From: Candidatus Uhrbacteria bacterium RIFCSPLOWO2_01_FULL_47_17
GTDB lineage: Bacteria > Patescibacteriota > Patescibacteriia > UBA9934 > GWF2-40-263
Reading direction: 5' to 3'
Assembly: GCA_001791305.1 (NCBI GenBank)
Contig: MGEI01000005.1
Span: 404,208 to 468,207, forward strand
Length of the DNA: 64,000 nt
In this document: piece after piece, positions 8,179-42,187 of the stretch
How the letters are laid out: every line of letters starts with the position of its first letter
How positions within the stretch are numbered: the first letter of the stretch is position 1
The notes under the pieces: model-generated
Seen by the model: the letters and a program-made list of their open reading frames with translations, nothing else
What the model was told of the DNA's origin: nothing
Database searches by the model: none
Program-made: the position numbers and the translations under genes

Positions 8179-8431
8179 TTACGTTTGTGGTGCATGGACG
8201 GCTCGCGAACCGCCCCTACGTTGACAAACCTCTTTTTTTCTGCTTTACTAGAATTAGTATGAACTTATTTTTTGCTCACATCACAGGGAAACCAATGTTC
8301 GCCGATTACTCCGTCGAACGTACTTTTATTTTCCCGGTTTGTGATGCATTGATTTAAGGTATTTTCCTAGAATCAGTCCAAGATCAACCCGGGAAACCGG
8401 GTTGTTTTGTTTGTAGTGCATCGATGAACTG

Positions 8432-19372: not shown

Positions 19373-20257
19373 TCAAGCCGCTTGCGCGTCTGTGTTTGCG
19401 GCACGTTGCGGCTTAAAGAGAAAAAAATTTCGGACTTGTTTCACCTCGTCATCGATCCGAAAGTCGAATGTGTAGGGAATCGTCATTTGACAAGGGTGAA
19501 ACACATATCCCGGATACTGCTCATGGATGCGGGCCATGCCTTCCTGAAGACGCCGTGTCCAATCATCTGCAGAATCTTGGGTGCTGACATTTTCCTGATG
19601 GCGAACACGTTCGATCTGAAACGTTTTGTCTGTTGGATTTGCTTGTTTCACTTGGAGACAAGTCACTGCTTCGTTTTTTTCGCTGAAGACGAACAGATCA
19701 ATTCCAAGCATATATGATTCATAGACGCTTGGTAAATACATCCAGCACTCGTCGAGTTCTGAAATGATTTCGATGGTCTGTGCGCATGCGTGCGCGTAGT
19801 CGCAGCTCATGTTCCAGATGTTCGATCGGATCCCGGGCAGGGCGCCGATTTTGAGCACGCTCGGAATATCTTTCGGATCAAGATCCAAAAAGAGTTCAAC
19901 GAGTTTCTGCTTACACATGGCAACAAGAACGCTGTGAGATCTACGTTCATTGTCCGAGAATTGCGGGTGCATGAAGTGGAACGTCATGCGGTGCAAGATG
20001 ATCGCTTCAAACAGACATTTTTCCACTTCCGACAGCTGCTTTCTGAACGCGATGTATGTGGAGTCGAGCACGCGCTGAAAGAATGCGTTGTGTGTTTGCA
20101 CATGTCGTGTTTTCGAAAGCTCGGGCGCTTCCGGGAGATAGACAGGTTTGTTTTGCAAAAAGTCTTCCACACGACGCAAAATATCTGGCGTGAACATTTT
20201 GCTTCCGCGCACAAGACAGATTTCGTGATGAGTACGCAAGAATGTGTCGAGCATCAC
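19373..20257 (-). CDS. Hypothetical protein (294 aa; the start may instead be the internal Met at 20197)
   Basis: A long intact ORF with its own terminator. No family was recognised; a ThyX-like RHR..S..S.RY motif was looked for and is absent. Confidence 0.35.
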   Translation of the reverse strand: MMLDTFLRTHHEICLVRGSKMFTPDILRRVEDFLQNKPVYLPEAPELSKTRHVQTHNAFFQRVLDSTYIAFRKQLSEVEKCLFEAIILHRMTFHFMHPQFSDNERRSHSVLVAMCKQKLVELFLDLDPKDIPSVLKIGALPGIRSNIWNMSCDYAHACAQTIEIISELDECWMYLPSVYESYMLGIDLFVFSEKNEAVTCLQVKQANPTDKTFQIERVRHQENVSTQDSADDWTRRLQEGMARIHEQYPGYVFHPCQMTIPYTFDFRIDDEVKQVRNFFLFKPQRAANTDAQAA

Positions 20258-20365
20258 CTACCTCATGGAGATGGATATCCCATCTCATCTAAAAAGGACG
20301 ATATGGAAGACTACCAACAGAATCCGGTTGCGTCAAGCCTTTTTGTTCGATATGATCCTTTTACT

Positions 20366-26653: not shown

Positions 26654-27802
26654 ATGATTGATTGGGCAACTCTGCAAGAATGGCAAACGGATTGGTTGCA
26701 TGTGGATCCGAGTCAGATCCAAAAACGTCGCAGGTTTTTGATCGATGCGCTCAGCCGCGAGCAAACACATGTCACGCGCGCGATGAATACGCTCAGAAAT
26801 GGTCGTCTGCGTTTGGTGCGTGAGTATGCGGATATTTTTACGGATCAGCTCGAGCTTGATTCGTCCGTTTCCACAACGCTCAATCCGCACCGATTACTCG
26901 AACTTGCCGAAAAGCCGTGGGCAGATCAAAAACCAGATGCGCAACGCTGGTTTGAGTCCATCAGTCGGTTTGATCAAGCGGTCGCGGTCGCAAAAATCGA
27001 AATGTCGGATTCGTACGAAATGCTCGCGCGCGACATCAACGATCTCATGGATTTTTTATGGGGACATTTGTTTGAACCTGTTTTTGAAAAGATCGAGGTC
27101 TATTGCTATCACGATCCGGCAACTGGGTACGCTGTTTCCGCCGAAGATGTCGGCATCGGTCATCATTTGTCACGACCGGGATTAAAACGCCGCAAATCGA
27201 ATTTGACCTGTCGAAAAACCATGAAGGGTGAACTCGCGTTTTTTCGCCATCGCATCAAAGACGCGTTTGACGCGTGGCTGAAATCGCAACGACAGGTTCA
27301 TGATCCGGAGAAAAAACATCCTTACACGGTGTATGATCGCTGCGGGCTCACATTCATTGTTCCGACCATGATGGAGTTGCATGACGTAGCTCTTCAAATC
27401 GTCGAGCTGTTGCTCGATCACGGAGGAACGGAGATTGAACCGCTCGATACGAATTTTGTTGCGGAACAGTCGATCGACGCAACGAATCGTCAATCTTCAC
27501 CTGCCTACAAAGCCGCAAAGACCCTGATTCAATTTCGCGGACGCGTGTACGAATTTCAGTTCCTGACATTTCATGATTACTTCACAAGTAAGCGTTCCTT
27601 GAATGATTCAAATCATGATTTGTATCGTTTGCGACAAACGCTCAAATACTTCTTGCCACTTCTGTGGCCAAAAGAAATTTACGCGGTCGATTGGGGGAAT
27701 CCTCACATCATCTCCTCGCTCCGCAAATGGAAAATCAATCAACTTGGTTTGCGTGTGAACGGAAAACACACATCCACACATGAGTCTTCTGAAGATCCTT
27801 GA
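26654..27802 (+). CDS. RelA/SpoT-like nucleotidyltransferase-fold protein (small alarmone synthetase / toxSAS-like)
   Basis: RHRIKDAFDAWLKS...VYDRCGLTFIV parallels RvKs..Si..Kl...iyDi.g.RiIV, and GRVYEFQFLTFHDY parallels vEvQIRT..mH. An unrecognised ~190-aa domain sits upstream of it. Confidence 0.4.
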   Translation: MIDWATLQEWQTDWLHVDPSQIQKRRRFLIDALSREQTHVTRAMNTLRNGRLRLVREYADIFTDQLELDSSVSTTLNPHRLLELAEKPWADQKPDAQRWFESISRFDQAVAVAKIEMSDSYEMLARDINDLMDFLWGHLFEPVFEKIEVYCYHDPATGYAVSAEDVGIGHHLSRPGLKRRKSNLTCRKTMKGELAFFRHRIKDAFDAWLKSQRQVHDPEKKHPYTVYDRCGLTFIVPTMMELHDVALQIVELLLDHGGTEIEPLDTNFVAEQSIDATNRQSSPAYKAAKTLIQFRGRVYEFQFLTFHDYFTSKRSLNDSNHDLYRLRQTLKYFLPLLWPKEIYAVDWGNPHIISSLRKWKINQLGLRVNGKHTSTHESSEDP

Positions 27803-29445: not shown

Positions 29446-30009
29446 ATGCGTATTCGTCGATTGAATTTCAGTGATCTTCGGCAAGTGGTTCTGTTGTATT
29501 GCGGGTGTTTCACAGAAGCTCCGTGGTTCGAATGCTTCGATCCGGAAGAAGTGTGGCAAGAGTTCGTGTTGCTGTTTGCGCAAGCGCTTCCAAAAAAGGT
29601 TCGTGCAAAACACAAAGAACGCGCAGAGTTTCTCGTATGTGAAAATGAGGGTCAAATCGTGGGCGCTGCGATCGGATTTCCAATGGCTCAGAAACCAGAT
29701 GTCGCCACCCTTGTGACGACAGACACGGAACACACATTTTATTTTTCCGAACTGTTCGTGAGTTCGATGTATCGCAAGCAAGGTGTCGCGAAAGCGCTGA
29801 TTCGTGCGCGTATGAAAAAAGCTCGCGCGCGCGGGTTCACACACGGCGTGGTGCGCACCTCGATTGCGCAGTCCGTCATTCAACATCTCTATGTCGACGA
29901 GCTCGGGTTTTCGATCGTTGCGACACAAGAGGTCACATCGACAAAAGTGATCGATGGCGTGAAACAGGACGTCCCTGACACGCGTGTGATCATGGCCGGA
30001 AAAATCTAG
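29446..30009 (+). CDS. GNAT family N-acetyltransferase
   Basis: Motif A VSSMYRKQGVAKALI in a 187-aa protein. Two hairpin terminators follow (30006..30030, 30041..30075). Confidence 0.6.
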   Translation: MRIRRLNFSDLRQVVLLYCGCFTEAPWFECFDPEEVWQEFVLLFAQALPKKVRAKHKERAEFLVCENEGQIVGAAIGFPMAQKPDVATLVTTDTEHTFYFSELFVSSMYRKQGVAKALIRARMKKARARGFTHGVVRTSIAQSVIQHLYVDELGFSIVATQEVTSTKVIDGVKQDVPDTRVIMAGKI

Positions 30010-30107
30010 GAGAGGGAGGGGCATGCCCCTCCCTTACGTAAACGTACAGGCGCACGACATGCGCCTGTTTTTTGTGTATGAAAAAACCATCTCGAGATTC
30101 GAGATGG

Positions 30108-32072
30108 TTAGAGGTTGACTTCTTCGATCCAAGCCGTGAGGACAACGTCCGCAGGAGCGCGCCAGTCACCGCGAGGCGAGAGCGACACGCTTGCGATCTT
30201 CGGGCAGTCCGGCAGGTTTTGCCGTTTGAATTGTGCGTTCGAGAATCGCTTCAGGAACGCGAGCAACCATTTCAGAATCGTGGCGCGATCGAATTCTCCC
30301 GCGAACGTGAGTTCGGCGAGCCAAGCAATTTTTCGCGGCGCGTATCCATTGCGGATCATGTGCCAGAGGAAAAAGTCGTGCAGGATGTACGGACCGATGA
30401 TGTCTTCGGTTAGTTGCTCGATTTCGCCAGCCTTCTTTGCTTTCACAAGTTCTGGCGAAACGGGCGTCGCGAGAACGTCGAGGATCGACGTGCGGATTTC
30501 CTTGAAGAGCTCGATGTCCGCCGCGTGGCGAACAAGGTATTTCACGAGCGTTTTCGGGATGTCGCCGTTTGGATTGTACATCGACTGTTGATCGCCGTTG
30601 TACGTGCACCAACCTTGCGCGATTTCCGAGAGATCGCCCGTGCCAATCACGAACCCGAGGTCCATGAGAATGTGCGTGCGTTCACGCGCTTGCGCGTTCT
30701 CACACTGCAGGCACGTCCAGCACGGCTCGTGGCCAATGCTGCGAAGATGAGTCGTCACATTCTTCACAATCGAAATGTCTTTCCAGGTGACGCCGGTTTG
30801 CTGAATGAGCTTCAGCGCATTTTTCTTTGTGCGCTTCGAAGTGCCAGCGCCCGGCATCGTCACCGCAAGGATGCCCTTGCGATCCCAACCGAGTTCGTCA
30901 AACGCGCGAAGTGTGAAGAGAAATGCGAGAAGCGAATCGAGTCCGCCCGAGATGCCGATGACAACCTGACGTTTCGTCACGTTTTCGACACTCAAGAGTT
31001 TTCGCTTGAGCGCGGTCACGGCGTGGGCGAAGATGTCTTCGCACCGTTCGGCGCGTAGCTTGTCATCCGACGGAACAAACGGGAGTTTGTTCAGGGGGAC
31101 GATCGGACGCACCGCGATCGCATCGTCGGACGATTTGATCGTGCACTCGATCCGATGGAACGTTTTCGGATCGACCATCGAGGTCTGACCGAAACTTCCG
31201 GACATGAATCGCTCGCGTTCGAGCTTCTCGACATCAATGTCTGTGATGAGGAGTTGCGATTCGAACTGAAACGGTTTGGAGCGAATCCGCAGATGGCCGT
31301 TTTCGGCAATCATCGCGTCGCCGTCAAAGATGACATCGCCGGACGATTCCCACGGACCAGACGAGACGTACAAGTACGCACTCATGCAGCGCGCCGACTG
31401 TTGCGTCACGAGGTCTTTGCGATACGCTCCCTTTCCAATCTCGCTGTTTGAAGCAGAGAGATTGGTGAGGATCGTCGCGCCCGCATTCGCCATGTGCGAA
31501 CTCGGAGGAATCGGCATCCAGACGTCTTCACAGATTTCCGTGCCGAGACAAAAGATGCGGTGCTTGCTCGAACCCGTGCCCACGAACACATCTATCACGT
31601 GATTCGTTCCAAACGGAACACGCTGTCCGCAGAGTTCCACTTCCGAAATAGTCGCTTCATACGATGGTCGAAACCATCGGCTTTCGTAGAAGTGCTTGTA
31701 GTTCGGAATGAACGTCTTTGGCGTCACACACAAGATCTTGCCCTTGTGGCAGGTCACTGCAACATTGAACAACTTTTGGTTCACGAGCAGTGGCATGCCG
31801 ACTTGGATGATCATGTCGATCGCGTCTGTTAGATTGAGAAACAACTGAAGTTCCTCGACGGCTTTCTTGTGGAGAAATGGTTGCAAGAACAAATCGCCGC
31901 AGGTGTAGCCGGTAAGCGAGAGTTCTGGAAACGTGAGCAACTGTACACGCTCATGTTCAGCATTCCCAACAAGTTTCATCATCTCAAACACATTCATACG
32001 TGGATTTGCAACGTGCACTCTCGGCACCGCAACCGCCACACGAACAAGACCAAACGTATTCTTGGGTTTCAT
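30108..32072 (-). CDS. nadE: Glutamine-dependent NAD+ synthetase (N-terminal CN-hydrolase domain plus C-terminal NAD synthetase)
   Basis: Nitrilase-type N-terminus (LLTFPELSLTGYTCGDLF), C-terminal PP-loop VIGISGGLDS and a GGAGG SD. The start was chosen at the internal Met, giving 654 aa. Confidence 0.85.
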   Translation of the reverse strand: MKPKNTFGLVRVAVAVPRVHVANPRMNVFEMMKLVGNAEHERVQLLTFPELSLTGYTCGDLFLQPFLHKKAVEELQLFLNLTDAIDMIIQVGMPLLVNQKLFNVAVTCHKGKILCVTPKTFIPNYKHFYESRWFRPSYEATISEVELCGQRVPFGTNHVIDVFVGTGSSKHRIFCLGTEICEDVWMPIPPSSHMANAGATILTNLSASNSEIGKGAYRKDLVTQQSARCMSAYLYVSSGPWESSGDVIFDGDAMIAENGHLRIRSKPFQFESQLLITDIDVEKLERERFMSGSFGQTSMVDPKTFHRIECTIKSSDDAIAVRPIVPLNKLPFVPSDDKLRAERCEDIFAHAVTALKRKLLSVENVTKRQVVIGISGGLDSLLAFLFTLRAFDELGWDRKGILAVTMPGAGTSKRTKKNALKLIQQTGVTWKDISIVKNVTTHLRSIGHEPCWTCLQCENAQARERTHILMDLGFVIGTGDLSEIAQGWCTYNGDQQSMYNPNGDIPKTLVKYLVRHAADIELFKEIRTSILDVLATPVSPELVKAKKAGEIEQLTEDIIGPYILHDFFLWHMIRNGYAPRKIAWLAELTFAGEFDRATILKWLLAFLKRFSNAQFKRQNLPDCPKIASVSLSPRGDWRAPADVVLTAWIEEVNL

Positions 32073-32162
32073 GTTGTCTCCTTCCTGATTTTCGCATACC
32101 GACACGATTGTCAGTGGGCGAAGAAAAGGGGCGATGTAAACATCGCCAGATCGTATCGTGTC

Positions 32163-32192
32163 CGTAGGGGAGGGTCGCGACCCTCCCCTACG
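32163..32192. repeat. Family-C palindrome CGTAGGGGAGGGTCGCGACCCTCCCCTACG between the radical SAM gene and nadE
   Basis: Paralog of 1703..1726 with the same AATGC flank. Confidence 0.6.
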
Positions 32193-32205
32193 AATGCGCA
32201 TCGCA

Positions 32206-33165
32206 TCAATACAGAATATCGCCGTTGTGATCCCAGTTGCGGTAACCGTGACCGTCGGGCTTGTGCACGATCGACTTCATGACCGTACCGCCGTTTGCTT
32301 CTTCGCAGCGCGCAAACGTGACGTTCACGCCATGCGACTGCTCGTCGAAAATCCCGCCGACCAGGAACACAGGCGTGCCCCACGGAAGCGGATTGCCGAT
32401 GCGGACGCCGTGTTCCTTGTTCATACCGAACTCGGTGAACGCGGTCTGGAGCGGCGCGATGTCGATCCAGTTCGTCGCATTCCAGTCGATCACTTCCTGC
32501 GTCGCGCGGCCAACCGATTCCGGTCGCCATACTTCGCGGATGACCACCATTTGCACGCCGAGGTTGCCGAGCACACGAATGTACTCGAGAATCCCAGCCG
32601 TATTTTTCACACCTGACTTGTTGATGACAAGCGACGCGCGAACCATGAGTCCAAAGCTTCGACAACGTTGAATCAACTCCGCCGGCGACTTCTTGATCAA
32701 CATGAGTTCACGATTCTGTTTGAAGTCGTGACTCGCGATCGAGAGCGTGATCATGGTGAGACCAGCATTGACGAGATCCGGAAGTAGATATTCTCTTGAA
32801 ATGGACGGTGGTAGATTGGGTTGGAACAAGTAACCGTTCGTATGCATGTCCACGAGCGGAAGATAACGACTGCATTCTTTCACAACACTCACGAGGTACT
32901 CAGCTTTTTCCTGACTTGGATCCGCACGCCCTGTGAGGATCGCGTGCGTTGCGCCCGTGCGTTCTGCAAATCGCAGACCGACACGAAGACGCTTCAAGCC
33001 ACAGAGCTTCACAAGCTTCTCGTCTTCAACCTCCGTCCCGGGCGTTGTGCGACTGATGCAAAACTTGCAACCAGCTGTGCAACGCTCGCGGGTAGAGAGC
33101 TGAATCGAAATGCTTTGTGCGCGCATCTGTCCAGAACCGTGAGCGATTTGCTGATGGTCTGCCAT
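32206..33165 (-). CDS. Radical SAM protein of unknown function
   Basis: CTAGCKFC (a Cx3Cx2C motif) near the N-terminus and an AAGGTGAAGGAG SD. Confidence 0.55.
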   Translation of the reverse strand: MADHQQIAHGSGQMRAQSISIQLSTRERCTAGCKFCISRTTPGTEVEDEKLVKLCGLKRLRVGLRFAERTGATHAILTGRADPSQEKAEYLVSVVKECSRYLPLVDMHTNGYLFQPNLPPSISREYLLPDLVNAGLTMITLSIASHDFKQNRELMLIKKSPAELIQRCRSFGLMVRASLVINKSGVKNTAGILEYIRVLGNLGVQMVVIREVWRPESVGRATQEVIDWNATNWIDIAPLQTAFTEFGMNKEHGVRIGNPLPWGTPVFLVGGIFDEQSHGVNVTFARCEEANGGTVMKSIVHKPDGHGYRNWDHNGDILY

Positions 33166-33248
33166 TGAATGAACTCCTTCACCTTCACACGTCGACGAAA
33201 TTGTCGGCGGGTGGAGAAAAGGATGATGCATGTGCATCATCAAGCCTG

Positions 33249-33962
33249 TTAATCCATTTCCACTCCATGTTCTTCGCCATCCATATCGTCATCACCGCGC
33301 TCATCTTCGAACGGATAGGCGGCATCGTCGCTAGAGACACCCTCGCAATCACAGGAGTGATCGATGACCTCGTTCAGACGAACGATCTTGCGTTCGAGGA
33401 GCTTCAAGCGAATGTATTGAATGAATGCGAGCACGCGCAGGTCGTCGCAGACGAACGTTTCGAGATCTTTTGTTGAGACCCAGTGACGGGTGATCCCTTC
33501 GTTCTCGCCTTCCGCGCTGCGAACGTCATCGTCCTTGCCCGTAAGTTGTTCGGGGCGTACCTCGGCATAGCAAAGGTATGCACGTTCGGTGAGGACACCA
33601 ATCGATAGCACCATGCTTTGGCCGAAGTTCAACATCTCGATGTCATCCTCCGTGAGGTCAACTCCGACTTCTTCCATCGCTTCTTTGATGAGAAGTTGTT
33701 TGGGCGAAAGTTTTACATCGAATCGACCCGCAAACGGCGTGACGAGCGTGCCGTGCGGATTCTCGTCTGACATCGCCGCAACGTGATCTTGCCTGATGAG
33801 CAAAATGCGTTCGTTGACGACATCGTGGAGAACTCCCGCAACAGAATCCGTTGTCCGGATGAATTCATTCAAGAATCGATTGCCGGGTTTTAGCCAGCGC
33901 TCCAGTATGACAAACCCTTTGTGAGGGATGTCGACCAGAACGGGAAGCGGTTTGTTTGCCAT
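33249..33962 (-). CDS. Nudix hydrolase (ADP-ribose/NAD-related pyrophosphatase candidate) with an acidic C-terminal tail
   Basis: Nudix box GRFDVKLSPKQLLIKEAMEEVGV. The SD is nearly identical to that of the radical SAM gene. Confidence 0.6.
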   Translation of the reverse strand: MANKPLPVLVDIPHKGFVILERWLKPGNRFLNEFIRTTDSVAGVLHDVVNERILLIRQDHVAAMSDENPHGTLVTPFAGRFDVKLSPKQLLIKEAMEEVGVDLTEDDIEMLNFGQSMVLSIGVLTERAYLCYAEVRPEQLTGKDDDVRSAEGENEGITRHWVSTKDLETFVCDDLRVLAFIQYIRLKLLERKIVRLNEVIDHSCDCEGVSSDDAAYPFEDERGDDDMDGEEHGVEMD

Positions 33963-34037
33963 CGTTGTTTCCTTCACCTTCACATGCCGACACAATTGTC
34001 AGCATGCGGAGAAAAGGGGTGATTGAATCACCCAGGT

Positions 34038-34069
34038 TATGGGCGGGGTCACCAGACCCCGCGACGAAT
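34038..34069. repeat. Family-B palindrome TATGGGCGGGGTCACCAGACCCCGCGACGAAT downstream of pncB
   Basis: Near-identical to the copy inside leuS. Confidence 0.65.
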
Positions 34070-35325
34070 CAGACCAAACACGTAACATTTACATGTTCGT
34101 ATCGATCGTAATTCGTCAGTCGTTTCACACGCAGTACAGCAGATGTGCGGCCGGTCAGTTTCTTTCGGTTGTCCGAGAGTTTGACGGTTGCGCGTCCCGA
34201 GATGTGAGTGAGCTTGCAGACAATCGAGAGTGCTTTCAGTCCGCGATTGTTTTCGTAATTCTGGAAACCCATGTTGTTGCCAAGGTTCGTGCCCCAGCCA
34301 AACGCGAGTTTGATGCGACCGCGGAAGTGCGCGTTCAATTGCACGATGAGTCGTGCGTCGAGACCGTCCGAGAAGACAATGAGTTTCGTCTTTGGATCGA
34401 TTCCGATCAACTCGTAAAACTTGATGATCTTTTCGCCGTATGCAAACGGGTCGCCGGAATCGTGACGTGTTCCGATCCACAGCTCGGCAAACGCCTTGAA
34501 GTGTTCGAGGAAGTAGTCCGAGCCGTACGTGTCCGAAAGCGCGATCGAAAGGATGGTGCCGTAGAGTGCAAACCATTGTTCGAGGAGCAGATCGTGCGAG
34601 TACATGTACCCGCGTGCGTCGTCCTCTTTGTGGTAAATGCCTTGATAGCCCATGTCCATTTCGTGGGCGATGGTGCCGATCGCTTCAATGCCGAGTTCAA
34701 GCGCGATCCAGATGTTGGATGTGCCCGCAAATTGTTTGCCCATTGTTGCAGCACAGGTTGCAACAACTTCGAACTGCCAATCATAGCTCCACCGACGACG
34801 CGTGCTGAAATCTGTGACGACGGCGTCCGATTCCATGACAATGTCGATGTTCTCGATGAGCTTGTCGCGGCCCGAGGCAATGACTTCTTCTTCCGTGAGC
34901 CCGAGCTCTTTGCACTTTGCGCGGAAGTAGATGCGATTGACCACGTTCATGATGAACGTTTCCCACATCGTGATTGCGGTCCACTTGCCCTGCGCGTAAA
35001 TGGCGAGCTTGCCTTTCACCACGCCGACATGAATGTCCGAGAGCTTGTAGCTGCGAAGCCACGTAAGGAACGCAGGCTGCAGTTGTTTGCCAAGGGTTGG
35101 ATGATTCCGAAGGCGTTCGATCATGCCCTGCGTCATCGTCATCTGCTTGATGTGGTCGAGTTCCGCTTGGACTTGTTCGACCGTCATGTAATTGAGCAGA
35201 TTCACATCTGTCCGATTTTTGAACGTGAAGCGTCCCTTGCGTTTGCGCTGATGGAGCCAGATGAACTGGAGCATCATCAGTTTGTACTTGTCTGTATCGA
35301 GTAAGTTCTTGACGATGTCGAACAT
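34069..35325 (-). CDS. pncB: Nicotinate phosphoribosyltransferase
   Basis: MFDIVKNLLDTDKYKLMMLQ (cf. pncB's DTDxYKLTM), ~418 aa, AGGAGG SD. Confidence 0.75.
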   Translation of the reverse strand: MFDIVKNLLDTDKYKLMMLQFIWLHQRKRKGRFTFKNRTDVNLLNYMTVEQVQAELDHIKQMTMTQGMIERLRNHPTLGKQLQPAFLTWLRSYKLSDIHVGVVKGKLAIYAQGKWTAITMWETFIMNVVNRIYFRAKCKELGLTEEEVIASGRDKLIENIDIVMESDAVVTDFSTRRRWSYDWQFEVVATCAATMGKQFAGTSNIWIALELGIEAIGTIAHEMDMGYQGIYHKEDDARGYMYSHDLLLEQWFALYGTILSIALSDTYGSDYFLEHFKAFAELWIGTRHDSGDPFAYGEKIIKFYELIGIDPKTKLIVFSDGLDARLIVQLNAHFRGRIKLAFGWGTNLGNNMGFQNYENNRGLKALSIVCKLTHISGRATVKLSDNRKKLTGRTSAVLRVKRLTNYDRYEHVNVTCLV

Positions 35326-35348
35326 CGTGCCTCCTGTTTCAACGCTTA

Positions 35349-35371
35349 CTCATGAACCCCGTGTTCATGAG
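35349..35371. promoter_or_regulatory. Inverted repeat CTCATGAAC-cccgt-GTTCATGAG in the pncB leader
   Basis: Perfect 9-bp arms, 24-46 nt upstream of the pncB start. Confidence 0.35.
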
Positions 35372-35506
35372 AGAAATGTGCCCCCGAATGCGTTCCACGA
35401 AGCCCCTCCTGCGAAGGAGGGGTTGGGGGAGGTTGCGCTCAGGAAAACGTTTCTTGAAGGAAAAATGTTCCCGGGGCTGAATGATTCAACCCCGAGACGA
35501 GATGAC

Positions 35507-36895
35507 TTACAATTCGCTGATGCGACGTTGCAAATCTGTTTCTGGAAAGAAGGCGAGTTCTGCGGTTGCGGTTGCGCTTCGACGAATATTCATCCAGTTT
35601 AGTTCGCCAAGCGCGACGCCGTCGCAGAAACCGCGCATAGGGCGCTTTTCTTGGTTCATGGCTTCGAATCGAATGCTTGTTTCGATCGGAAGCGGTTCGT
35701 TCTTCCAATGATGGGAGCACACGCAGCTTCCAACAAGTTGGAGCATTTGTGTGCCGGGGATGAGGCGTGATCCGCCCATGCGGTACGCATACCCCGTTGA
35801 TCCAGCCGCCGTTGAGACGAGCATGATGTCTGACATGATGGGATCGAATTTCACTTCGCCGTTCATGAGGACACGTGTCCAAATTGTTTGCCCGCTGAGG
35901 CGATCCACCCATGCATCGTTGAATGCGAGCATGTTGGATTGTGTGCCGTCAACAGATTCCGCCTCTATGTATAACAGCGATTCTGTGTACGTCTTGAGTT
36001 CGAGGTGTGATTGCAGTTGATCAACAATCTTCGTTTCGTCGAAGTCGTTGAGCAAGAATCCTTTCGTGCCGCGATTGAGTCCGAGGAAGGGAACATGGTC
36101 ACGCCACAGACGACGAATCGTATGAAGCATGAATCCATCGCCCCCAATCACGACAATGCAATTGTGTTCACCGATGGGTGTCTGAAACGCATCTGATAAT
36201 CTCTTGCCGATCGCAACCGTACTTTCATTGCGGTCGTTTGCGACAACAAGCGGTCGAAGTGTTTCTTGAAATTCCGCAGGACCTCGCATGATGCGTCCCG
36301 TGAATAACTGATGTCGTGCGATGTATTGACCAATCGCTGGTGACACAAGATCGTCGATTGACTGATGCCTGAAGATCCGTTCGCGAATTTCCGAACTGGA
36401 TCCACGGAGCGTCGGTTCGATGATCGTGTGGTGTGGCGGAAGATCTTCGGGCACGCATTCGATTCCATGGCGCATGTGCACGAGGAAGTGAAGTGTGTTC
36501 CAGACTTCCTGTCCGCAAAACCACGTTCGATGAATCTCGGACAATCCATGCGCGCCACCGGCAACGATGTCGGCGCCGATCACGTGACAGATTTCATGAT
36601 TCGGATACAGCGCACGATAGCGCTGATCTATGTCGAACGAACGCGTAAACACAGATTGCTCGAGATCTGTGAGATCAATTTCGACACGCGGGATGCGGCC
36701 GAACGCGAGGTCACAGAGTGCTGCACGAGACGCAAGTGAAAGATCGTTCGTCGTCTCTTTGTCCGGTCGCGGCCCGCACGGAAGAACGATGAGACGATCA
36801 TCCGGTCCGAGCTTACTCGCAAGTTTCTGAACAATCGCCTCATGATGCAATCCCGGAGGATTGAAACTGCCACCGTACAGAAAAATCTTTGGCAT
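35507..36895 (-). CDS. Bifunctional NaMN/NMN adenylyltransferase (NadD-like) - NAD kinase (NadK) fusion
   Basis: N-terminal IFLYGGSFNPPGLHHEAI and SSEIRERI; C-terminal VVIGGDGFMLHTIR (GGDG) and TAAGSTGYAYRMGG; 462 aa. Confidence 0.7.
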   Translation of the reverse strand: MPKIFLYGGSFNPPGLHHEAIVQKLASKLGPDDRLIVLPCGPRPDKETTNDLSLASRAALCDLAFGRIPRVEIDLTDLEQSVFTRSFDIDQRYRALYPNHEICHVIGADIVAGGAHGLSEIHRTWFCGQEVWNTLHFLVHMRHGIECVPEDLPPHHTIIEPTLRGSSSEIRERIFRHQSIDDLVSPAIGQYIARHQLFTGRIMRGPAEFQETLRPLVVANDRNESTVAIGKRLSDAFQTPIGEHNCIVVIGGDGFMLHTIRRLWRDHVPFLGLNRGTKGFLLNDFDETKIVDQLQSHLELKTYTESLLYIEAESVDGTQSNMLAFNDAWVDRLSGQTIWTRVLMNGEVKFDPIMSDIMLVSTAAGSTGYAYRMGGSRLIPGTQMLQLVGSCVCSHHWKNEPLPIETSIRFEAMNQEKRPMRGFCDGVALGELNWMNIRRSATATAELAFFPETDLQRRISEL

Positions 36896-36915
36896 CTTGT
36901 ACTCCTGTGTTCGAA

Positions 36916-36960
36916 GCCCCCTCTCCCTTCGAGGGAGAGGGCTGGGGAGAGGGTTTGTCC
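36916..36960. repeat. Family-A element upstream of the nadD-nadK start
   Basis: GCCCCCTCTCCCTTCGAGGGAGAGGGCTGGGGAGAGGGTTTGTCC. Confidence 0.65.
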
Positions 36961-37042
36961 TTGCATTAAGCGTCTCACCTCTTGAGGCGCTTAAGAAAAG
37001 GGCAGAGCTTTGGAAAACTCTGCAAGTTGGAAAAAGTTCGTG

Positions 37043-37813
37043 CTACTCTTGGATGAATCTTTCCGCGATCAGGAGTTTACGGAGGATATGCGGGCTCGAT
37101 TTGTCGACGACGTAGAGGTTCTCTCTTTTATCGGCGAACGTGCCAGCGACGAGTTCGGCGGCGATCTCGTCTGCCGCACGACCCGAGCCTTTCACCACAA
37201 TGGTGGGCCAACCTTTCTTGATCGAGCGCATGACTTCATCGCGCGTGATCGCACCGCCGTTCCAGGCAATGACGCCGGCGCGGTGGAAGCCGCCGTATTG
37301 CGTGAGCTGATCCATGAGTCCGAACGCGGCATCCAAGTCGCCATCCCAACCGAGCTTGCCTTCCGCCCCGTCTTGAACGAGGAGGATTGCGTTCATGCTC
37401 GGGTTTGGCGCGGTGCCGTAGTCGTCGAGTACGAGGCGAGACTCTTCGACGAGACGCAGAACGTCCGTGCGAGGAGTCGAACCGAGTGCGACACACTTTG
37501 GATTGCCCGCGGCAACAACGCCAGGAACATCTGTGACCATCGGATCGAGGTTGCCGTCTTTGTCGAATTGGCGCGTGCCACCCGACCAGATCATGCCCTC
37601 GAAACCCTTGAATGCGATCTGGAAAAAATCCATCATCGCTTTCTTATCATCGGCATTCATCCCTTTGCATCCGCCGCTGATGCGAATGCAGACTTTACGC
37701 GCCGCACGCGTTGCCATGAGGGCGAACGTTGCGGGGAGTTGAGCTCCCTTGTCTTGAATGATCAGAACAGTCCTGCCGTCCTGACCAGTTACCGTTTTTG
37801 CGGACATGAACAC
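37043..37813 (-). CDS. SLOG/LOG-like Rossmann-fold protein, paralog 1
   Basis: RISGGCKGM..., WSGGTRQFD..., WNGGAITRDEV... and VVKGSGRAADEI parallel the LOG motifs GGG.G.M / PGG.GT.EE. Confidence 0.4.
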   Translation of the reverse strand: MFMSAKTVTGQDGRTVLIIQDKGAQLPATFALMATRAARKVCIRISGGCKGMNADDKKAMMDFFQIAFKGFEGMIWSGGTRQFDKDGNLDPMVTDVPGVVAAGNPKCVALGSTPRTDVLRLVEESRLVLDDYGTAPNPSMNAILLVQDGAEGKLGWDGDLDAAFGLMDQLTQYGGFHRAGVIAWNGGAITRDEVMRSIKKGWPTIVVKGSGRAADEIAAELVAGTFADKRENLYVVDKSSPHILRKLLIAERFIQE

Positions 37814-37858
37814 CTTCGCACTTCCTAATTTTCCACACCCATGATTTCACGGACGCAG

Positions 37859-38605
37859 TTACTCCGGGGGAAGCATCCCGAAGGAAATGAGATGTTGGCG
37901 AATGTCGCGCGAATCTTTTTCGGCGACACGAACGTTTGGATGTGCTTCGAGAAACGCATTGTTGCTCGCGTACTCATCCGCCTTGCGACCACTTCTTCGT
38001 ATGAGGAGGACGGGCCAACCACGTTTTGCGGTTGCGAGGATTTCGCGTTCCGTCACGCCACCGCCGTTGTAGACGATGAGCAATGATTTGAATTCCGCGA
38101 ACTCGCGCAGGTCTTTCGTGATCTGCAAGCACTCTTCGAACTCCGCGTCCCAAATGGCCGGTTGATCCGGCGACACTTGAACGAGCAGGCACATATCTTG
38201 GTTCGGATGAATGATGGTGCGATAGGTATCCGCATCACTCTCCGAAACCACGAGTCCGTGTTCCGTGATTTTGATCTCCGACGTCCTCGGCACAACGCCG
38301 AGTGACACCATGTTTGGACACACGTCGCGAATGTGCGACGGAATCTCGGTGATCCCAGGCACAATCTGCGACACGTCTTGTTTCTGAATCATGCGCGTGC
38401 CACCAAAGAGCATGGCGCCTGCAAATCCAGCGAATGCATCTGCGAAGAGCGAAAGAAAATCCCGCGCATCCTCGGCGGACATGTATCCACATCCGCCCGT
38501 GAGTCGTACAACAACTCGATTGCGAGCGGTCGTGAGTCTCAGAGCGATCTTTACTGACCGGTCTCCTTGATTCTTCACGAACAAGGAGGGAATGATGTGT
38601 GACAT
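37859..38605 (-). CDS. SLOG/LOG-like Rossmann-fold protein, paralog 2
   Basis: RLTGGCGYMSAED, LFGGTRMIQ, YNGGGVTEREI and LLIRRSGRKADEY share their motif order with paralog 1 (37043..37813). Confidence 0.4.
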   Translation of the reverse strand: MSHIIPSLFVKNQGDRSVKIALRLTTARNRVVVRLTGGCGYMSAEDARDFLSLFADAFAGFAGAMLFGGTRMIQKQDVSQIVPGITEIPSHIRDVCPNMVSLGVVPRTSEIKITEHGLVVSESDADTYRTIIHPNQDMCLLVQVSPDQPAIWDAEFEECLQITKDLREFAEFKSLLIVYNGGGVTEREILATAKRGWPVLLIRRSGRKADEYASNNAFLEAHPNVRVAEKDSRDIRQHLISFGMLPPE

Positions 38606-38751
38606 CGTGTTCTCCTTGTGTTTGTGAACCTTCGATTTCAGAACCTCATGGTTGAGGTGCTGAAGAAAAGGGCTCTGTCATTTCTTTTTGCGGATCTGTA
38701 TGTGCAAGCGGAAATGGAGAGCAGGGGAGAGTTGAGAAAGAGCGAAGAGAC

Positions 38752-39510
38752 TTAGACGTGGATCTGATTCGAGTTGATGCACTCCACGCCGCGAGCGATG
38801 AGGCGCGCTTCCATGAAGGCAATCGAACCCGGGTAGTCGCCATCGGGAGGCAAGCCAACCGAACGCGTGCCGTCGCGGACGATGTAGGACTCGAAGCCTT
38901 CGAGTGCGGCGTCTTCGGCCGTGAAGCCAACGCAGAAGTCGAACGCGAGACCGACGATGAACACGCGCCTGATGCCGCGCTCCTTCAGAATGCGACCGAG
39001 TCCGGTCGGCATCCAAAGCGTATCGCGAAACGCGCTGTAGCTGTCGACACGCGGATCCGTTCCTTTCGGAAAGTGCAGAACGAACGCGCTCTCGAGATCA
39101 CGCAAGCCATCGAAGAGACGAATCTCGTTCGTGGTCATTTCGGCATGTTCGTCCCAGAGGAGCGTTTCGTGCCGATTCAGGCGCATGAGGTAAGCGATCA
39201 AGTCTTCATTGGTGAAGAGTGCATGTTTCGCGATCTTGACCTTGTGACCCAAAACTTCCGTGATCGTGAGCGGACCGCGAGCCCGCTTCACGTAGGAGGT
39301 TCGATAGTTGATGTGTCCTTTCGGATGCGCGTCAAAGACGTTGTATCGCTGATTGCGCTTGAATTTCAGAACGAGCTCTCGGATGACATCGACGATTTCA
39401 AGGGCGCCAGGCACGGGCAGTCCGCCATTTGGACCGAATGCATTTGTGACATCGACCACGATGACAGCATCGCCTTTGCCGATCTGAATCAAACCATCAA
39501 GGTTCCGCAT
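38752..39510 (-). CDS. pncA: Nicotinamidase (isochorismatase-like cysteine hydrolase)
   Basis: VIVVDVTNAF...VFDAHPKGHINY...VFIVGLAFDFCVGFTAEDA (catalytic Cys); GAGGAG SD. Confidence 0.7.
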   Translation of the reverse strand: MRNLDGLIQIGKGDAVIVVDVTNAFGPNGGLPVPGALEIVDVIRELVLKFKRNQRYNVFDAHPKGHINYRTSYVKRARGPLTITEVLGHKVKIAKHALFTNEDLIAYLMRLNRHETLLWDEHAEMTTNEIRLFDGLRDLESAFVLHFPKGTDPRVDSYSAFRDTLWMPTGLGRILKERGIRRVFIVGLAFDFCVGFTAEDAALEGFESYIVRDGTRSVGLPPDGDYPGSIAFMEARLIARGVECINSNQIHV

Positions 39511-39725
39511 GACTTCTCCTCATTCCCCACATGGGGGAGTTTAATGAACAGCAGCTGCGGGAAACCCTGTGTTTTCCGCATGTGAATTCATTGAAAAACG
39601 TATTTTTAGAACCCGAGAGAATACCAGTTTTTGGCGAAAATGTCAATGGTTTTTGGCCTGTTTACACGAACGGATCCTCGGGCGCCTCTTTCATGGATTT
39701 TTCGGTTGGAACGAACGTTAAATTA

Positions 39726-39760
39726 AAGTAAGTGTAGTACATACACTTACTTGTGTCAAG
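39726..39760 (-). promoter_or_regulatory. pncA promoter (minus strand TTGACA-N17-TACACT) overlapped by the perfect inverted repeat AAGTAAGTGTA-gtaca-TACACTTACTT
   Basis: The 11-bp palindrome arms span the -10 element and spacer, as expected for a repressor operator. Confidence 0.45.
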
Positions 39761-39818
39761 ACCCAATAAAAACGCACCAATCTTTCGATTTGGTGCGTTT
39801 TGTTCCGTTGACTTTTCG

Positions 39819-40487
39819 TTACATTATCTCTACATATTCCAGCTTCTTGTGCTTGAACTTATAGAGCTCCGCCGGGCGGTTTGCCTCGCCGCCTCGTTTC
39901 TTTCCAATCGGAACGATCAGATCAAGAGCCAAAATGCGCTTACGGAAGTTGCGTTTATCAACAGTTGTATCAAGAATAATCTCGTAAACACGCTGTAAAT
40001 CTGTGAGGGTGAACTCTTCGGAAAGCAGGCTCCAGGCGATGTTTGTGTACTGGAGTCGGCTTTTGAGCCGTGTAATTGCTTCTTTTGCGATGTGCTTATG
40101 ATCATAAGCCAATTCCGGGAGTTTTTTCACGGGCCACCACTTCACGTCTTGGTACTTATCGGTTGTTTTGAGCTCGACTTCCGATGAGGAAATAAGCGCA
40201 AACGACGCGACCGAGATCACACGCTCGAGTTGATCGCGTTCAATGGAATCAAACGTTTTGAGCTGTTCGAGGTAGACGTTCGAAACACCGGTTTGTTCTT
40301 TTAAGATCCGAACGGCCGTCTCTTCGGTTGTCTCTGTATTCTCGACGCGTCCGCCAGGGAAGGCCCAGAGTCCTGTATACGGCGACTTTTTCATTTGGAT
40401 GAGAAGGGCGCAGAGTTCGCCGTCTTTGACGGTGAAGATGACGGTATCAACCGCGACGATGATCGATTGCTTTGGGGGATTGGGCAT
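39819..40487 (-). CDS. nrtR: NrtR-like Nudix-related transcriptional regulator of NAD metabolism (Nudix plus C-terminal wHTH)
   Basis: Nudix box GGRVENTETTEETAVRILKEQTGV. The C-terminal ~90 aa (FTLTDLQRVYEIIL...RNFRKRILALDLIVPIGKKR...) fits the NrtR winged-helix domain. It heads an NAD-salvage gene array. Confidence 0.55.
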   Translation of the reverse strand: MPNPPKQSIIVAVDTVIFTVKDGELCALLIQMKKSPYTGLWAFPGGRVENTETTEETAVRILKEQTGVSNVYLEQLKTFDSIERDQLERVISVASFALISSSEVELKTTDKYQDVKWWPVKKLPELAYDHKHIAKEAITRLKSRLQYTNIAWSLLSEEFTLTDLQRVYEIILDTTVDKRNFRKRILALDLIVPIGKKRGGEANRPAELYKFKHKKLEYVEIM

Positions 40488-40494
40488 ATTTGTT

Positions 40495-40509
40495 TGTGTA
40501 AATTACACA
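40495..40509. promoter_or_regulatory. Perfect palindrome TGTGTAA-A-TTACACA immediately upstream of the nrtR start (candidate autoregulatory operator)
   Basis: Perfect 7-bp arms, sitting in the divergent nrtR / 40583 intergenic region. Confidence 0.4.
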
Positions 40510-40582
40510 CAAAGTACCAGAGAATGCGCGTTGCGTCAAGCGGGTGGAAAAAAGCGCGCGAGTCTCGTATACTATTCTCACT

Positions 40583-40885
40583 ATGTTTGATCGAGAAAAA
40601 TCACCATACATTCCACCCATGACCGGAGAAGAAGCGCTCGCCATGTTTGGCGATCGTTCACTCCTTACGCTTGAAGAGCAGCGTGATCGTCTTGGTTTGC
40701 TCACAAATGAAATGGCACAAGAACTTGCCGCACTTCGTGAAGATCCCGAAGCAGATTGGGAGGTTGTTTCAAGATTGGAATCTGATTTGGATGAGGTGCG
40801 TGAAACATTAAGCAGAACAAACAAAGAGATTCGAAAATTAGGACAAGATTTTGGAAAGAAGCGCGGTCCGCTTACGCTGCATTAA
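40583..40885 (+). CDS. Hypothetical coiled-coil protein (100 aa)
   Basis: A TATACT -10 element lies 10 nt upstream (near-leaderless). It is followed by murA. Confidence 0.35.
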   Translation: MFDREKSPYIPPMTGEEALAMFGDRSLLTLEEQRDRLGLLTNEMAQELAALREDPEADWEVVSRLESDLDEVRETLSRTNKEIRKLGQDFGKKRGPLTLH

Positions 40886-40888
40886 CTT

Positions 40889-42187
40889 ATGTCTGTTTTT
40901 CATGTCACCGGCGGGAAACCTCTCATTGGAGAAATTACTGTTTCTGGCGCAAAGAACGCTGCGTCCAAAATGTTGATCGCAACATTGCTCACTTCGGAAT
41001 CCGTTGTACTCAAAAATGTTCCGCGTCAACAAGAAACACAAATCACGCAAGAGATTCTCGAAGCCGTTGGGGCGAAGATCGACTGGCGCGCGCAGAATGA
41101 AGTGTGTGTAACAACAGCGTCGATCGCATCCACAAACGCTACATCACTCTCGCGAAAAAATCGCATTAGTATTTTGGCACTCGCGCCACTCTTGCATCGT
41201 GCGGGCGAAGCATTTGTTCCTCGGGTGGGTGGCGACGCGATTGGGCCGCGCCCCGTGAATTTTCATATTGATATTTTGACGAAGATGGGTGCGGAAATTT
41301 CCGAAACAGAAAACGGATATCACGCAAAAATCTTGAAACGATTAAAAGGAACACTCATTGAGCTCGCGTATCCATCCGTCGGCGCAACGGAAACCGCTAT
41401 TCTCGCCGGTGTACTTGCTGAAGGTCGCACCACGATCAGAAACGCGGCGGGAGAGCCGGAAGTAAAACAGTTGATCATGATGCTCCAAAACATGGGAGCG
41501 ATTATTCAGATCAATTCTGGACGTTGGATTGAAATTTTCGGCGTTGAAAAATTACGAGGAACAGAAGTCACAGTGATGCCGGACCGCATCGAGGCCGCAT
41601 CGTACGGATCGATGGCGATCGGAACGCGTGGCGAAATTCTCGTCCGCGGCGCAGAGCATGCGCATATGATGACGTTTCTCAATGCGGTGCGTAGAATCGG
41701 TGGGGAATATGAAGTGAAGCCGAACGGGATTTTGTTTCGCGGAACGCGGCCGCTGAAAGGTATTGAGCTCGAGACCGACACACATCCAGGCTTTATGACC
41801 GACTGGCAGCAACCGTTCGTCACTGTTCTTACACAGGCCGAAGGAACTTCGGTCGTGCACGAAACGGTTTACGAAGAACGCTTCGGCTACACAGACGCAC
41901 TCAAAAAAATGGGGGCGGACATCACGCTCTTCTCGAATTGTCTTGGTGAAAGTCCGTGTCGATTTAAAGGCATGAATTACAAACACTCGGCGGTGATCAA
42001 CGGACCATCGAAATTGCACGCCGCCGAAGTTGAAGTCCCAGACATTCGCGCCGGCCTCGCGTTCGTTGTTGCAGCACTCATTGCAGACGGCACATCGACC
42101 CTTACAGGAATCGAACATCTTGATCGTGGGTATGAGAACCTCGAAGAGAAACTGCGGGGAGTTGGCGCGGATATAAAAAGAGAGTGA
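40889..42187 (+). CDS. murA: UDP-N-acetylglucosamine 1-carboxyvinyltransferase
   Basis: MSVFHVTGGKPLIGEITVSGAKNAASKMLIATLL, 432 aa. Confidence 0.9.
   Translation: MSVFHVTGGKPLIGEITVSGAKNAASKMLIATLLTSESVVLKNVPRQQETQITQEILEAVGAKIDWRAQNEVCVTTASIASTNATSLSRKNRISILALAPLLHRAGEAFVPRVGGDAIGPRPVNFHIDILTKMGAEISETENGYHAKILKRLKGTLIELAYPSVGATETAILAGVLAEGRTTIRNAAGEPEVKQLIMMLQNMGAIIQINSGRWIEIFGVEKLRGTEVTVMPDRIEAASYGSMAIGTRGEILVRGAEHAHMMTFLNAVRRIGGEYEVKPNGILFRGTRPLKGIELETDTHPGFMTDWQQPFVTVLTQAEGTSVVHETVYEERFGYTDALKKMGADITLFSNCLGESPCRFKGMNYKHSAVINGPSKLHAAEVEVPDIRAGLAFVVAALIADGTSTLTGIEHLDRGYENLEEKLRGVGADIKRE

Follow-up and report, generated by a model that had tools for sequence, protein, structure and literature searches.

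What are genes with no known role in the metabolism of nicotinamide adenine dinucleotide (NAD) doing inside a cluster for NAD salvage? The question is raised by a locus at positions 30108 to 40487 of the window, i.e. the whole 64-kb stretch of DNA analysed here, which comes from the chromosome of a groundwater bacterium, Candidatus Uhrbacteria, of the candidate phyla radiation (CPR, Patescibacteria). A first reading of this sequence, referred to below as the original prediction, had described a tight, co-directional array of eleven genes under an NrtR-like regulator, four of which had no assigned role in NAD metabolism (two SLOG-like proteins, a Nudix hydrolase and a radical S-adenosylmethionine protein, hereafter rSAM). 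CPR bacteria have tiny genomes, mostly without cofactor biosynthesis, and the upkeep of the NAD pool is therefore central to their host dependence.

We consider it quite probable that the locus is a chromosomal NAD salvage, NADP synthesis and ADP-ribose (ADPR) recycling locus of Candidatus Uhrbacteria, to which some of the steps outlined below are assigned by inference. What is new with regard to described NrtR operons is a nadD-nadK fusion (widespread in CPR loci), a conserved rSAM gene, a recurrent SLOG pair and an RNA element that comes in several copies. The leads of most value are the rSAM family and this RNA element.

Gene content and layout of the locus

Gene labels were assigned from the list of open reading frames (ORFs), from Pfam and NCBIfam hidden Markov model (HMM) scans and from two confident structure models. 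Loci designated by an L number (L007, L041 etc.) are the related genome and metagenome loci used for comparison. Nine ORFs in a single orientation run from 40487 to 30108; they are given here in transcription order (NaMN, nicotinate mononucleotide).

39819..40487, minus strand: nrtR; PF00293 at 5.3e-17 and PF21906 (NrtR_WHD) at 2.5e-24, both above their cutoffs
38752..39510, minus strand: pncA, nicotinamidase (isochorismatase family); PF00857 at 2.3e-13 and NF008623 (PRK11609) at 1.5e-23, the latter under its equivalog cutoff
37859..38605, minus strand: SLOG1, stand-alone TRPM-type SLOG protein (LSDAT_prok); passes the PF18171 cutoff
37043..37813, minus strand: SLOG2, paralog of SLOG1 with 31 % identity; passes the PF18171 cutoff with 40.8 bits
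35507..36895, minus strand: nadD-nadK fusion, NaMN adenylyltransferase and NAD kinase; PF01467 (CTP_transf_like), PF01513 and PF20143 (NAD_kinase N, C), TIGR00482 at 1e-24 and NF003406 at 1.2e-38
34069..35325, minus strand: pncB, nicotinate phosphoribosyltransferase; TIGR01514 with 305 bits against a cutoff of 269.55 and PF04095 at 2.8e-49
33249..33962 (long ORF 33249-33995), minus strand: divergent Nudix hydrolase, probable start at the ATG at codon 12 of the long ORF; TIGR00052 at 3e-7, below its cutoff
32206..33165 (long ORF 32206-33243), minus strand: rSAM, probable start at the ATG at codon 27; weak by HMM, with a CX3CX2C motif and an rSAM fold
30108..32072 (long ORF 30108-32201), minus strand: nadE, glutamine-dependent NAD synthetase, probable start at the ATG at codon 44; NF002730 with 724 bits against a cutoff of 473, PF00795 and PF02540

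The co-directional minus-strand arrangement and all the gene identities of the original prediction were borne out by the ORF list, the HMM scans and the structure models. Its count of eleven has to be lowered to nine, which is also the number of genes in its own list, and "tight" does not describe spacers of 308, 146, 51, 147, 181, 106, 83 and 133 nt (in gene order, with the likely starts), most of which hold stable hairpins. The good Shine-Dalgarno (SD) sequence ascribed to each gene is clear at eight of the nine and absent from nrtR. The longest-ORF starts probably do not hold for Nudix, rSAM and nadE, whose likely true starts are ATGs preceded by an SD at codons 12, 27 and 44, respectively; independent gene calls on identical contigs give proteins of 237, 319 and 654 aa.

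The Preiss-Handler set is complete, i.e. the PncA, PncB, NadD-domain and NadE families are all encoded; pncB and nadE pass NCBIfam cutoffs, and pncA and nadD pass Pfam domain cutoffs only. The same gene order recurs in related genomes, where a lack of it would have weakened the original prediction, and at least 12 related loci have the nadD-nadK fusion in full length. This fusion was seen in the window and in L007, L010, L012, L014, L019-L022, L026, L028, L031 and L035, and nadD and nadK are separate genes in L009, L016-L018 and L023. A SLOG1 protein identical to that of the window is also encoded on Rifle groundwater metagenome contigs and in GCA_001791565.1, and an identical rSAM protein is recorded from Candidatus Uhrbacteria bacterium RIFCSPHIGHO2_12_FULL_47_12.

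In the pathway that we propose, PncA would convert nicotinamide to nicotinate, PncB would use phosphoribosyl pyrophosphate (PRPP) to form NaMN, the NadD domain would adenylylate NaMN to nicotinate adenine dinucleotide, and NadE and the NadK domain would yield NAD and NADP, respectively. The Nudix hydrolase would split ADPR into AMP and ribose 5-phosphate, from which the ribose would return to PRPP. A hetero-oligomer of SLOG1 and SLOG2 would bind an ADPR-like or mononucleotide product of NAD breakdown, likeliest ADPR or nicotinamide mononucleotide (NMN)/NaMN, and may cleave the N-glycosidic bond of its ligand to give the pyridine base and ribose phosphate. The rSAM enzyme would carry out an oxygen-independent radical transformation of a small phosphorylated ligand, plausibly a pyridine or ADPR nucleotide, and this step would lie outside every described NAD pathway. 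NrtR would repress nrtR itself and the transcript next to pncA at the least and would be released by ADPR, as in characterised NrtRs. The RNA element would tune the downstream genes post-transcriptionally; in it, a terminator-like hairpin is followed by a CCUUUUCU tract and by another hairpin that pairs this tract with the purine-rich ribosome-binding region.

The radical SAM family

About 155 homologues of the rSAM protein were found in a set of 5.8 billion proteins, and all those with a name belong to Patescibacteria (Uhr-, Komeili-, Buchanan-, Falkow- and Parcubacteria). When a profile was run against 1.84 billion representatives, only 39 proteins fell below 1e-30, surrounded by a shell of uncharacterised rSAM proteins of about 290 aa that all stay under every NCBIfam cutoff; for a more distant relative of about 290 aa, encoded on a 2-kb contig, the context was uninformative. 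Judged by these searches, the rSAM protein represents an uncharacterised family essentially confined to Patescibacteria.

The evidence on its role comes mainly from its neighbours. Scanning one genome per species gave 24 rSAM loci, and in 23 of them at least two of nadD, nadK, pncB, nadE, pncA, Nudix and nrtR are no more than 10 kb away, as a rule co-oriented and in many cases immediate neighbours; at the 24th, nrtR is the divergent neighbour. Other recurrent neighbours are an ADP-ribosylglycohydrolase, a Prs-like phosphoribosyl-pyrophosphokinase, a histidine phosphatase, an IU-nucleoside-hydrolase-like protein, extra isochorismatase-like proteins, a NAMPT-like protein and a deoxyribosyltransferase-like protein fused to Nudix, all of them enzymes of NAD or ADPR turnover. 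Such a context is strong guilt by association for a role of the rSAM enzyme in NAD or ADPR metabolism. No paper tying a radical SAM enzyme to NrtR or NAD salvage, and none on this cluster, was found in our literature searches.

The NAMPT-like gene (about 540 aa) lies next to rSAM in L012 and L023, and a divergent Prs-like gene (about 310 aa) in L013, L015-L018 and L026. These neighbours recall the NAD-reconstitution pathways of phages, which use ADPR pyrophosphorylation. Another module, made up of a protein-kinase-like protein of about 600 aa, a PP2C-like phosphatase and an isochorismatase-like protein of about 310-360 aa without Pfam match, occurs beside NrtR, SLOG or NAD genes in L016, L019, L023, L024, L032, L035 and L096.

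The structure model of the rSAM protein is a confident partial TIM-barrel rSAM fold, nearest to MoaA, viperin and BlsE. In the family alignment, the CX3CX2C motif is invariant, as are many polar residues (a dense set of His, Asp, Arg, Asn and Gln, with the C-terminal HKPDGHGYRNWD motif among them), a C-terminal KSIVHKPDGHGYRNWDHNGDILY motif is conserved, and cysteines for a second cluster are lacking. The fold neighbours and the invariant polar residues point to a small phosphorylated nucleotide as a possible substrate. A sequence search of the PDB gave no match to the rSAM protein, and the viral structures of BFVD gave only generic rSAM matches.

The rSAM protein shares with MoaA, viperin and BlsE, whose substrates are nucleotides and nucleoside sugars, the partial TIM-barrel core and the N-terminal CX3CX2C, with weak HMM similarity to moaA, and differs from them in having its own conserved C-terminal beta domain, which carries KSIVHKPDGHGYRNWDHNGDILY. 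Two specific assignments were rejected. The protein is not MoaA (GTP 3',8-cyclase), since the C-terminal cysteine triad for the auxiliary cluster is not conserved; TIGR02666 scores 21.4 bits against a cutoff of 284. As to prokaryotic viperin, NF038283 does not match the window protein and gives distant relatives 22-43 bits against a cutoff of 180.

A quite different function would be to mature or activate a protein or cofactor, e.g. by the post-translational modification of an enzyme of the cluster. The nearest folds do include, besides the enzymes named above, a lipid synthase and peptide maturases, and this counts against the role in nucleotide metabolism that we favour. We nevertheless find a maturase quite unlikely: the protein has neither a SPASM/twitch cysteine set nor a peptide-binding RRE domain, the neighbourhood shows no conserved gene for a small precursor peptide or a glycyl-radical enzyme, its best full-length-coverage matches are the small-molecule enzymes MoaA, viperin and BlsE, and the invariant polar set described above argues in the same direction.

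A repeated two-hairpin RNA element

An RNA element built around CCUUUUCU precedes five of the nine genes, i.e. SLOG1, nadD-nadK, Nudix, rSAM and nadE. On the gene strand it consists, in this order, of a GC-rich hairpin (P1), the tract CCUUUUCUY and a second hairpin (P2), where the tract is paired to GAAGG, a purine-rich segment that is the SD in the leaders of Nudix, rSAM and nadE. The five copies, with their scores under covariance model R1, are the following.

38620..38699, minus strand: copy 1, upstream of SLOG1; 48.7 bits
36949..37033, minus strand: copy 2, upstream of nadD-nadK; 41.7 bits
33963..34043, minus strand: copy 3, upstream of Nudix; 58.3 bits, 3' arm overlapping the SD
33168..33250, minus strand: copy 4, upstream of rSAM; 60.2 bits, 3' arm overlapping the SD
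32075..32156, minus strand: copy 5, upstream of nadE; 53.3 bits, 3' arm overlapping the SD

The pattern CCTTTTCTYM has six matches in the 64-kb window (0.88 expected), five of them in the element spacers, and the longer pattern CTTTTCTYC...GACAAT...GTCG has three (0 expected). Orthologous spacers of related genomes keep the architecture with different stem sequences. Over 823 kb, the covariance model gave 31 matches at E < 0.01, all of them on the gene strand and in NAD-cluster spacers, from 14 loci (the window, L007, L008, L009, L011, L014, L017, L018, L020, L021, L022, L028, L029 and L031); there was no match in the other 53 kb of the window or in loci with the SLOG pair only. A further 126 kb contributed one partial, opposite-strand match to the inner stem (L044, E = 0.006).

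The structure was derived from single-sequence folds and examined by pair counting, with controls in which the partners were slid. In the model-aligned set, 79 % of the cells are paired against 43-54 % with slid partners, and 69 cells show double changes against 14-33; in a MAFFT alignment not fitted to the model, the paired cells amount to 76 % against 42-52 %. P2 shows covariation. RNAalifold predicted no structure on the raw MAFFT alignment. P1 lies immediately 5' of the U tract in 25 of 27 copies examined. A search of Rfam, which includes the NAD+ riboswitches, gave no match for the leaders and spacers at the gathering threshold, nor any at E <= 5 over 30000-40900.

On our own reading, the element may act as an intercistronic terminator of the leaky kind, after which its U tract would mask the ribosome-binding site downstream. 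Beyond this tract, few of its unpaired nucleotides are conserved, which argues against a complex aptamer, and its restriction to NAD clusters suggests a pathway-specific role. It resembles fourU-type SD-sequestering hairpins, where the purine-rich ribosome-binding region is paired to four successive U, and leaky intrinsic terminators, where an upstream GC hairpin is followed by a U tract. Unlike either, it uses a single U tract for both functions and comes in up to five copies per cluster, and in the 0.95 Mb examined it is found, the L044 match aside, only in NAD-cluster spacers; it has no match in Rfam. Such an element would add a post-transcriptional control of NAD genes that is distinct from the two known classes of NAD+ riboswitch.

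In the rSAM-nadE spacer, a perfect palindrome of 15+15 nt (CGTAGGGGAGGGTCG/CGACCCTCCCCTACG, 32163-32192) lies just upstream of copy 5; L007 has a different hairpin in its place.

The SLOG pair

Both SLOG-like proteins pass the PF18171 cutoff and are, as originally proposed, true SLOG proteins, of the TRPM/LSDAT branch; nothing placed them in unrelated families. SLOG1 has about 180 homologues, mostly in Patescibacteria, whose invariant motifs include TGGCGxM, FGGT, a LOG-like NGGxxTxxE and GSGR. Its structure model is confident (pLDDT 93), and the top match of the fold search is the ADPR-binding MHR1/2 domain of TRPM2, the SLOG domain of ThsA being another structural relative. Against the PDB, the single SLOG1 sequence gave noise only and a profile gave weak TRPM matches, and in the profile alignment the NGG...GSGR block falls on the corresponding block of TRPM2. 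Position arithmetic equates the arginine of GSGR, by inference, with human TRPM2 R358, a residue that contacts both phosphates of ADPR (PMC6759353).

The two proteins share with the TRPM2 domain its LSDAT_prok relationship and a GGxxT ... G(S/T)P ... GSG(R/L) block that includes the arginine for the ADPR phosphates. Unlike TRPM2, they are stand-alone proteins of about 250 aa, without channel or effector, that form an obligate paralog pair and keep the invariant Glu of NGGxxTxxE, as catalytic LOG enzymes do. From the LOG and PpnN (YgdH) phosphoribohydrolases they are set apart by a structural similarity lower than that to TRPM, by a TIGR00725 value of only 0.0067 for SLOG2 and by the lack of an identified counterpart of the upstream LOG arginine motif. 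It is plausible that the pair either hydrolyses its ligand, the original N-glycosidase idea, or only binds ADPR. As free-standing prokaryotic relatives of the TRPM2 ADPR site in an ADPR-regulated cluster, these proteins offer a tractable way into the question of what this ancient domain first bound or hydrolysed; should the pair be an NMN/NaMN nucleosidase, it would close the loop from ligase-derived NMN back to PncA and PncB.

Since SLOG1 and SLOG2 are adjacent and in the same order in 24 of the 25 metagenome loci of at least 5 kb (the exception is cut by a contig end), they likely form a hetero-oligomer. The pair lies inside NAD clusters in L031, L035, L041 and L096 and next to nrtR in L032, L037 and L054. 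With a view to nrtX-nrtY, NrtR targets of unassigned function in Rodionov 2008, distant SLOG-pair loci were scanned for the regulator, and no nrtR was detected within 10 kb of them, even at relaxed thresholds. In L047, L049 and L050, the pair sits on low-GC contigs with many short co-directional ORFs and a phage-like look, and a NADAR-like protein is encoded near it in L047 and L050.

These distributions bear on a second alternative, that the SLOG pair, and possibly the rSAM gene, are a mobile nucleotide-sensing or conflict module (anti-phage or phage-derived) that landed in the NAD locus in some lineages. The pair does travel as a self-contained two-gene unit, being found between unrelated housekeeping genes (L094/L095) and in phage-like contigs (L047, L049), sometimes near a NADAR-like gene. 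SLOG domains are also common sensors of NAD-derived signals in defence systems (PMC9503650), and the ThsA domain is a structural relative. We consider such a passenger origin unlikely all the same: no effector domain is fused or consistently adjacent, PADLOC models match none of SLOG1, SLOG2, Nudix and rSAM, the pair has nrtR as a neighbour or NrtR operators ahead of it in independent lineages (L037, L041, L054) and occurs with pncB, rSAM and nadE in L096, and rSAM is in NAD context in 23 of the 24 genomes, with viral structures giving only generic matches to it. The label of an anti-phage defence system was dropped for the four extra proteins because the PADLOC scan found nothing. The fairest reading is that the SLOG pair is a mobile two-gene module handling a NAD-derived nucleotide and repeatedly recruited to NrtR/NAD loci.

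The Nudix hydrolase

The stand-alone Nudix protein is nearest to YffH/AdpP and NudK (E of about 0.006 to NudK and ADPRase in the PDB), and it stays below the cutoffs of TIGR00052 (30.2 bits against 79.55) and PF00293 (19.4 against 21.1). Its Nudix box reads G-x5-L-x7-KE-A-M-EE-V-G, compared with the canonical GX5EX7REUXEEXGU, and that of its orthologues G-x5-hydrophobic-x7-KE-x2-EE-x-G, so that the metal-binding glutamates are kept and the first E and the R are replaced. We take it for a putative divergent ADPR pyrophosphatase of the YffH/AdpP/NudK type. ADPR recycling belongs to described NrtR regulons (PMC2330246), and a hydrolysis of ADPR that would feed PRPP fits their logic, which makes this the least mysterious of the four extra genes. 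The claim that four members are without a NAD role should accordingly be narrowed to three: rSAM and the SLOG pair lack a known one, and a Nudix protein of this type is ordinary in NrtR regulons.

NrtR and the extent of its control

The nrtR product joins a Nudix-like effector domain at the N terminus to a winged-helix DNA-binding domain at the C terminus, found by PF21906 as the original prediction had anticipated; NF050029 scores 147.9 bits, under the 400-bit equivalog cutoff. Read directly from the sequence, its Nudix box is degenerate (R-I-L-K-E-Q in place of RE-U-x-EE), as in non-catalytic NrtRs. The regulatory features of the cluster are listed below.

39726..39752, no strand assigned: predicted NrtR operator, a perfect AGTGTA-N5-TACACT core (39731-39747) inside an 11-5-11 perfect palindrome
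39759-39731, minus strand: promoter-like site (TTGACA, 17 nt, TACACT) upstream of pncA, overlapping the operator
40493..40509, no strand assigned: degenerate palindrome TGTGTGTAATTTACACA, candidate autoregulatory NrtR site 6 nt upstream of the nrtR ATG, with three mismatches to the 17-mer consensus
39618..39646, minus strand: second promoter-like site (TTGACA, 17 nt, TG-n-TATTCT), without operator, nearer pncA and conserved in L007 and L009
39769..39801, minus strand: intrinsic-terminator-like hairpin directly after nrtR, a 12-bp perfect inverted repeat followed by TTTTT
35469..35497, minus strand: strong terminator-like hairpin (13 bp) and T-run after nadD-nadK, with a counterpart in L007
30085..30109, minus strand: terminator-like hairpin and T-run at the end of nadE

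Of the pattern GTGTA-N(1-7)-TACAC, the 64-kb window has only two copies, where 0.03 would be expected, and they lie in the 5' regions of nrtR and pncA. Related loci give the consensus tTAGTGTA-N5-TACACTAa, of which 24 sites with no or one mismatch were found in 941 kb, against 2.6 expected from shuffles (about 9-fold); these sites precede nrtR by 1-32 nt or stand ahead of the first NAD gene. Matches with two mismatches, being at chance level (21 observed, 39 expected), were left out. In eight other loci, operator-like sites precede nrtR by 1-32 nt, and the TGTGTGTAATTTACACA palindrome is conserved in L007 and L009. The core of the window operator is the GT-N7-AC of the published 21-bp NrtR palindrome (PMC2330246). 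Control of nrtR and of the pncA promoter region by NrtR is well supported by these predicted sites. The original prediction, which placed the whole cluster under NrtR, is supported for the head, with its operator at pncA and palindrome at nrtR, and not for the distal genes, which have no operator-like site.

The NrtR-controlled Preiss-Handler operons described in 2008 (PMC2330246) are alike in regulator architecture, enzyme set, the palindrome of about 21 bp with GT-N7-AC and a site at nrtR. In the window, by contrast, nadD is fused to nadK, the SLOG pair, a divergent Nudix gene and rSAM are interleaved, the host belongs to the CPR, the RNA element precedes most cistrons and an operator is detectable at the head only.

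These observations raise a third alternative, namely that the array is made up of several independent transcription units, NrtR controlling only itself and the pncA promoter and the remaining genes being constitutive or under the RNA element. It would be favoured by the single perfect operator, with none before the five distal genes, by the T-run hairpins after nrtR, nadD-nadK and nadE, by the hairpin-plus-CUUUUCU structures in five other spacers and by the spacer lengths of 51-308 nt. The short distal spacers are, however, without evident sigma-70-like promoter, the U-tracts between the genes, being short and broken up (UUUUCU), point to leaky termination, and gene order and orientation are kept across genomes. 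Moreover, two operators precede the nadDK-pncB-SLOG1-SLOG2 run in L041, and a two-mismatch match, of the class at chance level and suggestive by its position alone, lies just upstream of nrtR-pncA-nadK-pncB-rSAM-nadE in L011. We give separate units a minority chance.

The pncA leader (39511-39617, minus strand), i.e. the roughly 100 nt from the second promoter-like site to the ATG, is conserved in three genomes (L007 3700-3826; L009 4540-4665). Of its two hairpins, CTGCGGAAA...TTTCCCGCAG and CCCCAtgTGGGG, the latter abuts the SD. This conservation may mark a further cis-regulatory RNA or merely recent shared ancestry.

Weighing the proposed role

Several further points, in addition to the maturase-like folds mentioned above, weigh against a NAD salvage and ADPR recycling locus under a common control. 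The pncA, nadD, nadK, Nudix and NrtR products all score under the NCBIfam equivalog cutoffs; this is to be expected from CPR divergence, which such scores would fit without proving function. About two thirds of the SLOG-pair loci lie outside NAD context, including phage-like contigs, and about one third lie near NAD genes or nrtR, and in our own reading of the alignment the SLOG family has no recognisable second LOG motif. As for regulation, the conserved promoter-like site without operator is the one nearer pncA, and no operator site with two or fewer mismatches precedes nadD-nadK, pncB, Nudix, rSAM or nadE. Terminator-like hairpins stand between most genes, which leaves a co-regulation of the tail by NrtR conjectural; because the 51-308 nt spacers carry such hairpins, a single operon is unsupported as well. 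NrtR control thus appears to be supported for the cluster head only, and the distal genes would depend on read-through.

The salvage and recycling reading remains the one that we prefer. A bolder joint version of it is advanced only tentatively: rSAM would catalyse an undescribed pyridine-nucleotide or ADPR step (conversion or repair of a NAD-derived nucleotide, or a new entry into the nicotinate branch), the SLOG complex would be the missing NMN/ADPR recycling enzyme or sensor where de novo NAD synthesis is absent, and the element would be a new ligand- or protein-responsive NAD riboregulator. If rSAM does act in the pathway, it would provide the first radical SAM step in NAD metabolism.

Chromosomal surroundings

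A phage or island origin of the locus was excluded, the surroundings being those of an ordinary CPR chromosome. The remainder of the window encodes LeuRS, IF-2, RNase Y, ComEC, UDP-glucose dehydrogenase, thioredoxin reductase, MurA, a HrpA-like helicase and EF-G, and its base composition is unremarkable. In the leucyl-tRNA synthetase (19790-23209, plus strand, 1139 aa), the editing domain has an inserted ASCH domain (PF04266, residues 443-544) ahead of it. Two ORFs, of 382 aa (26654-27802, plus strand) and 403 aa (8384-9595, minus strand), have no Pfam match at E <= 0.001.

Among the loci used for comparison, the third-party annotation metagenome-assembled genomes L009, L012, L018, L022, L024, L025 and L030 bear the title "uncultured Gammaproteobacteria" despite a CPR-type cluster, and L096 is titled Aenigmarchaeota, yet encodes sigma-70 and ParB; these titles are probably taxonomic mislabels or reflect mixed bins. 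Finally, a GNAT acetyltransferase gene (29446-30009, plus strand) faces nadE in convergent orientation and is met again downstream of the cluster in some relatives (L007 13204-13794; L010 8105-8638); going by the title of PMC6800001, NrtR is reportedly acetylated in mycobacteria.

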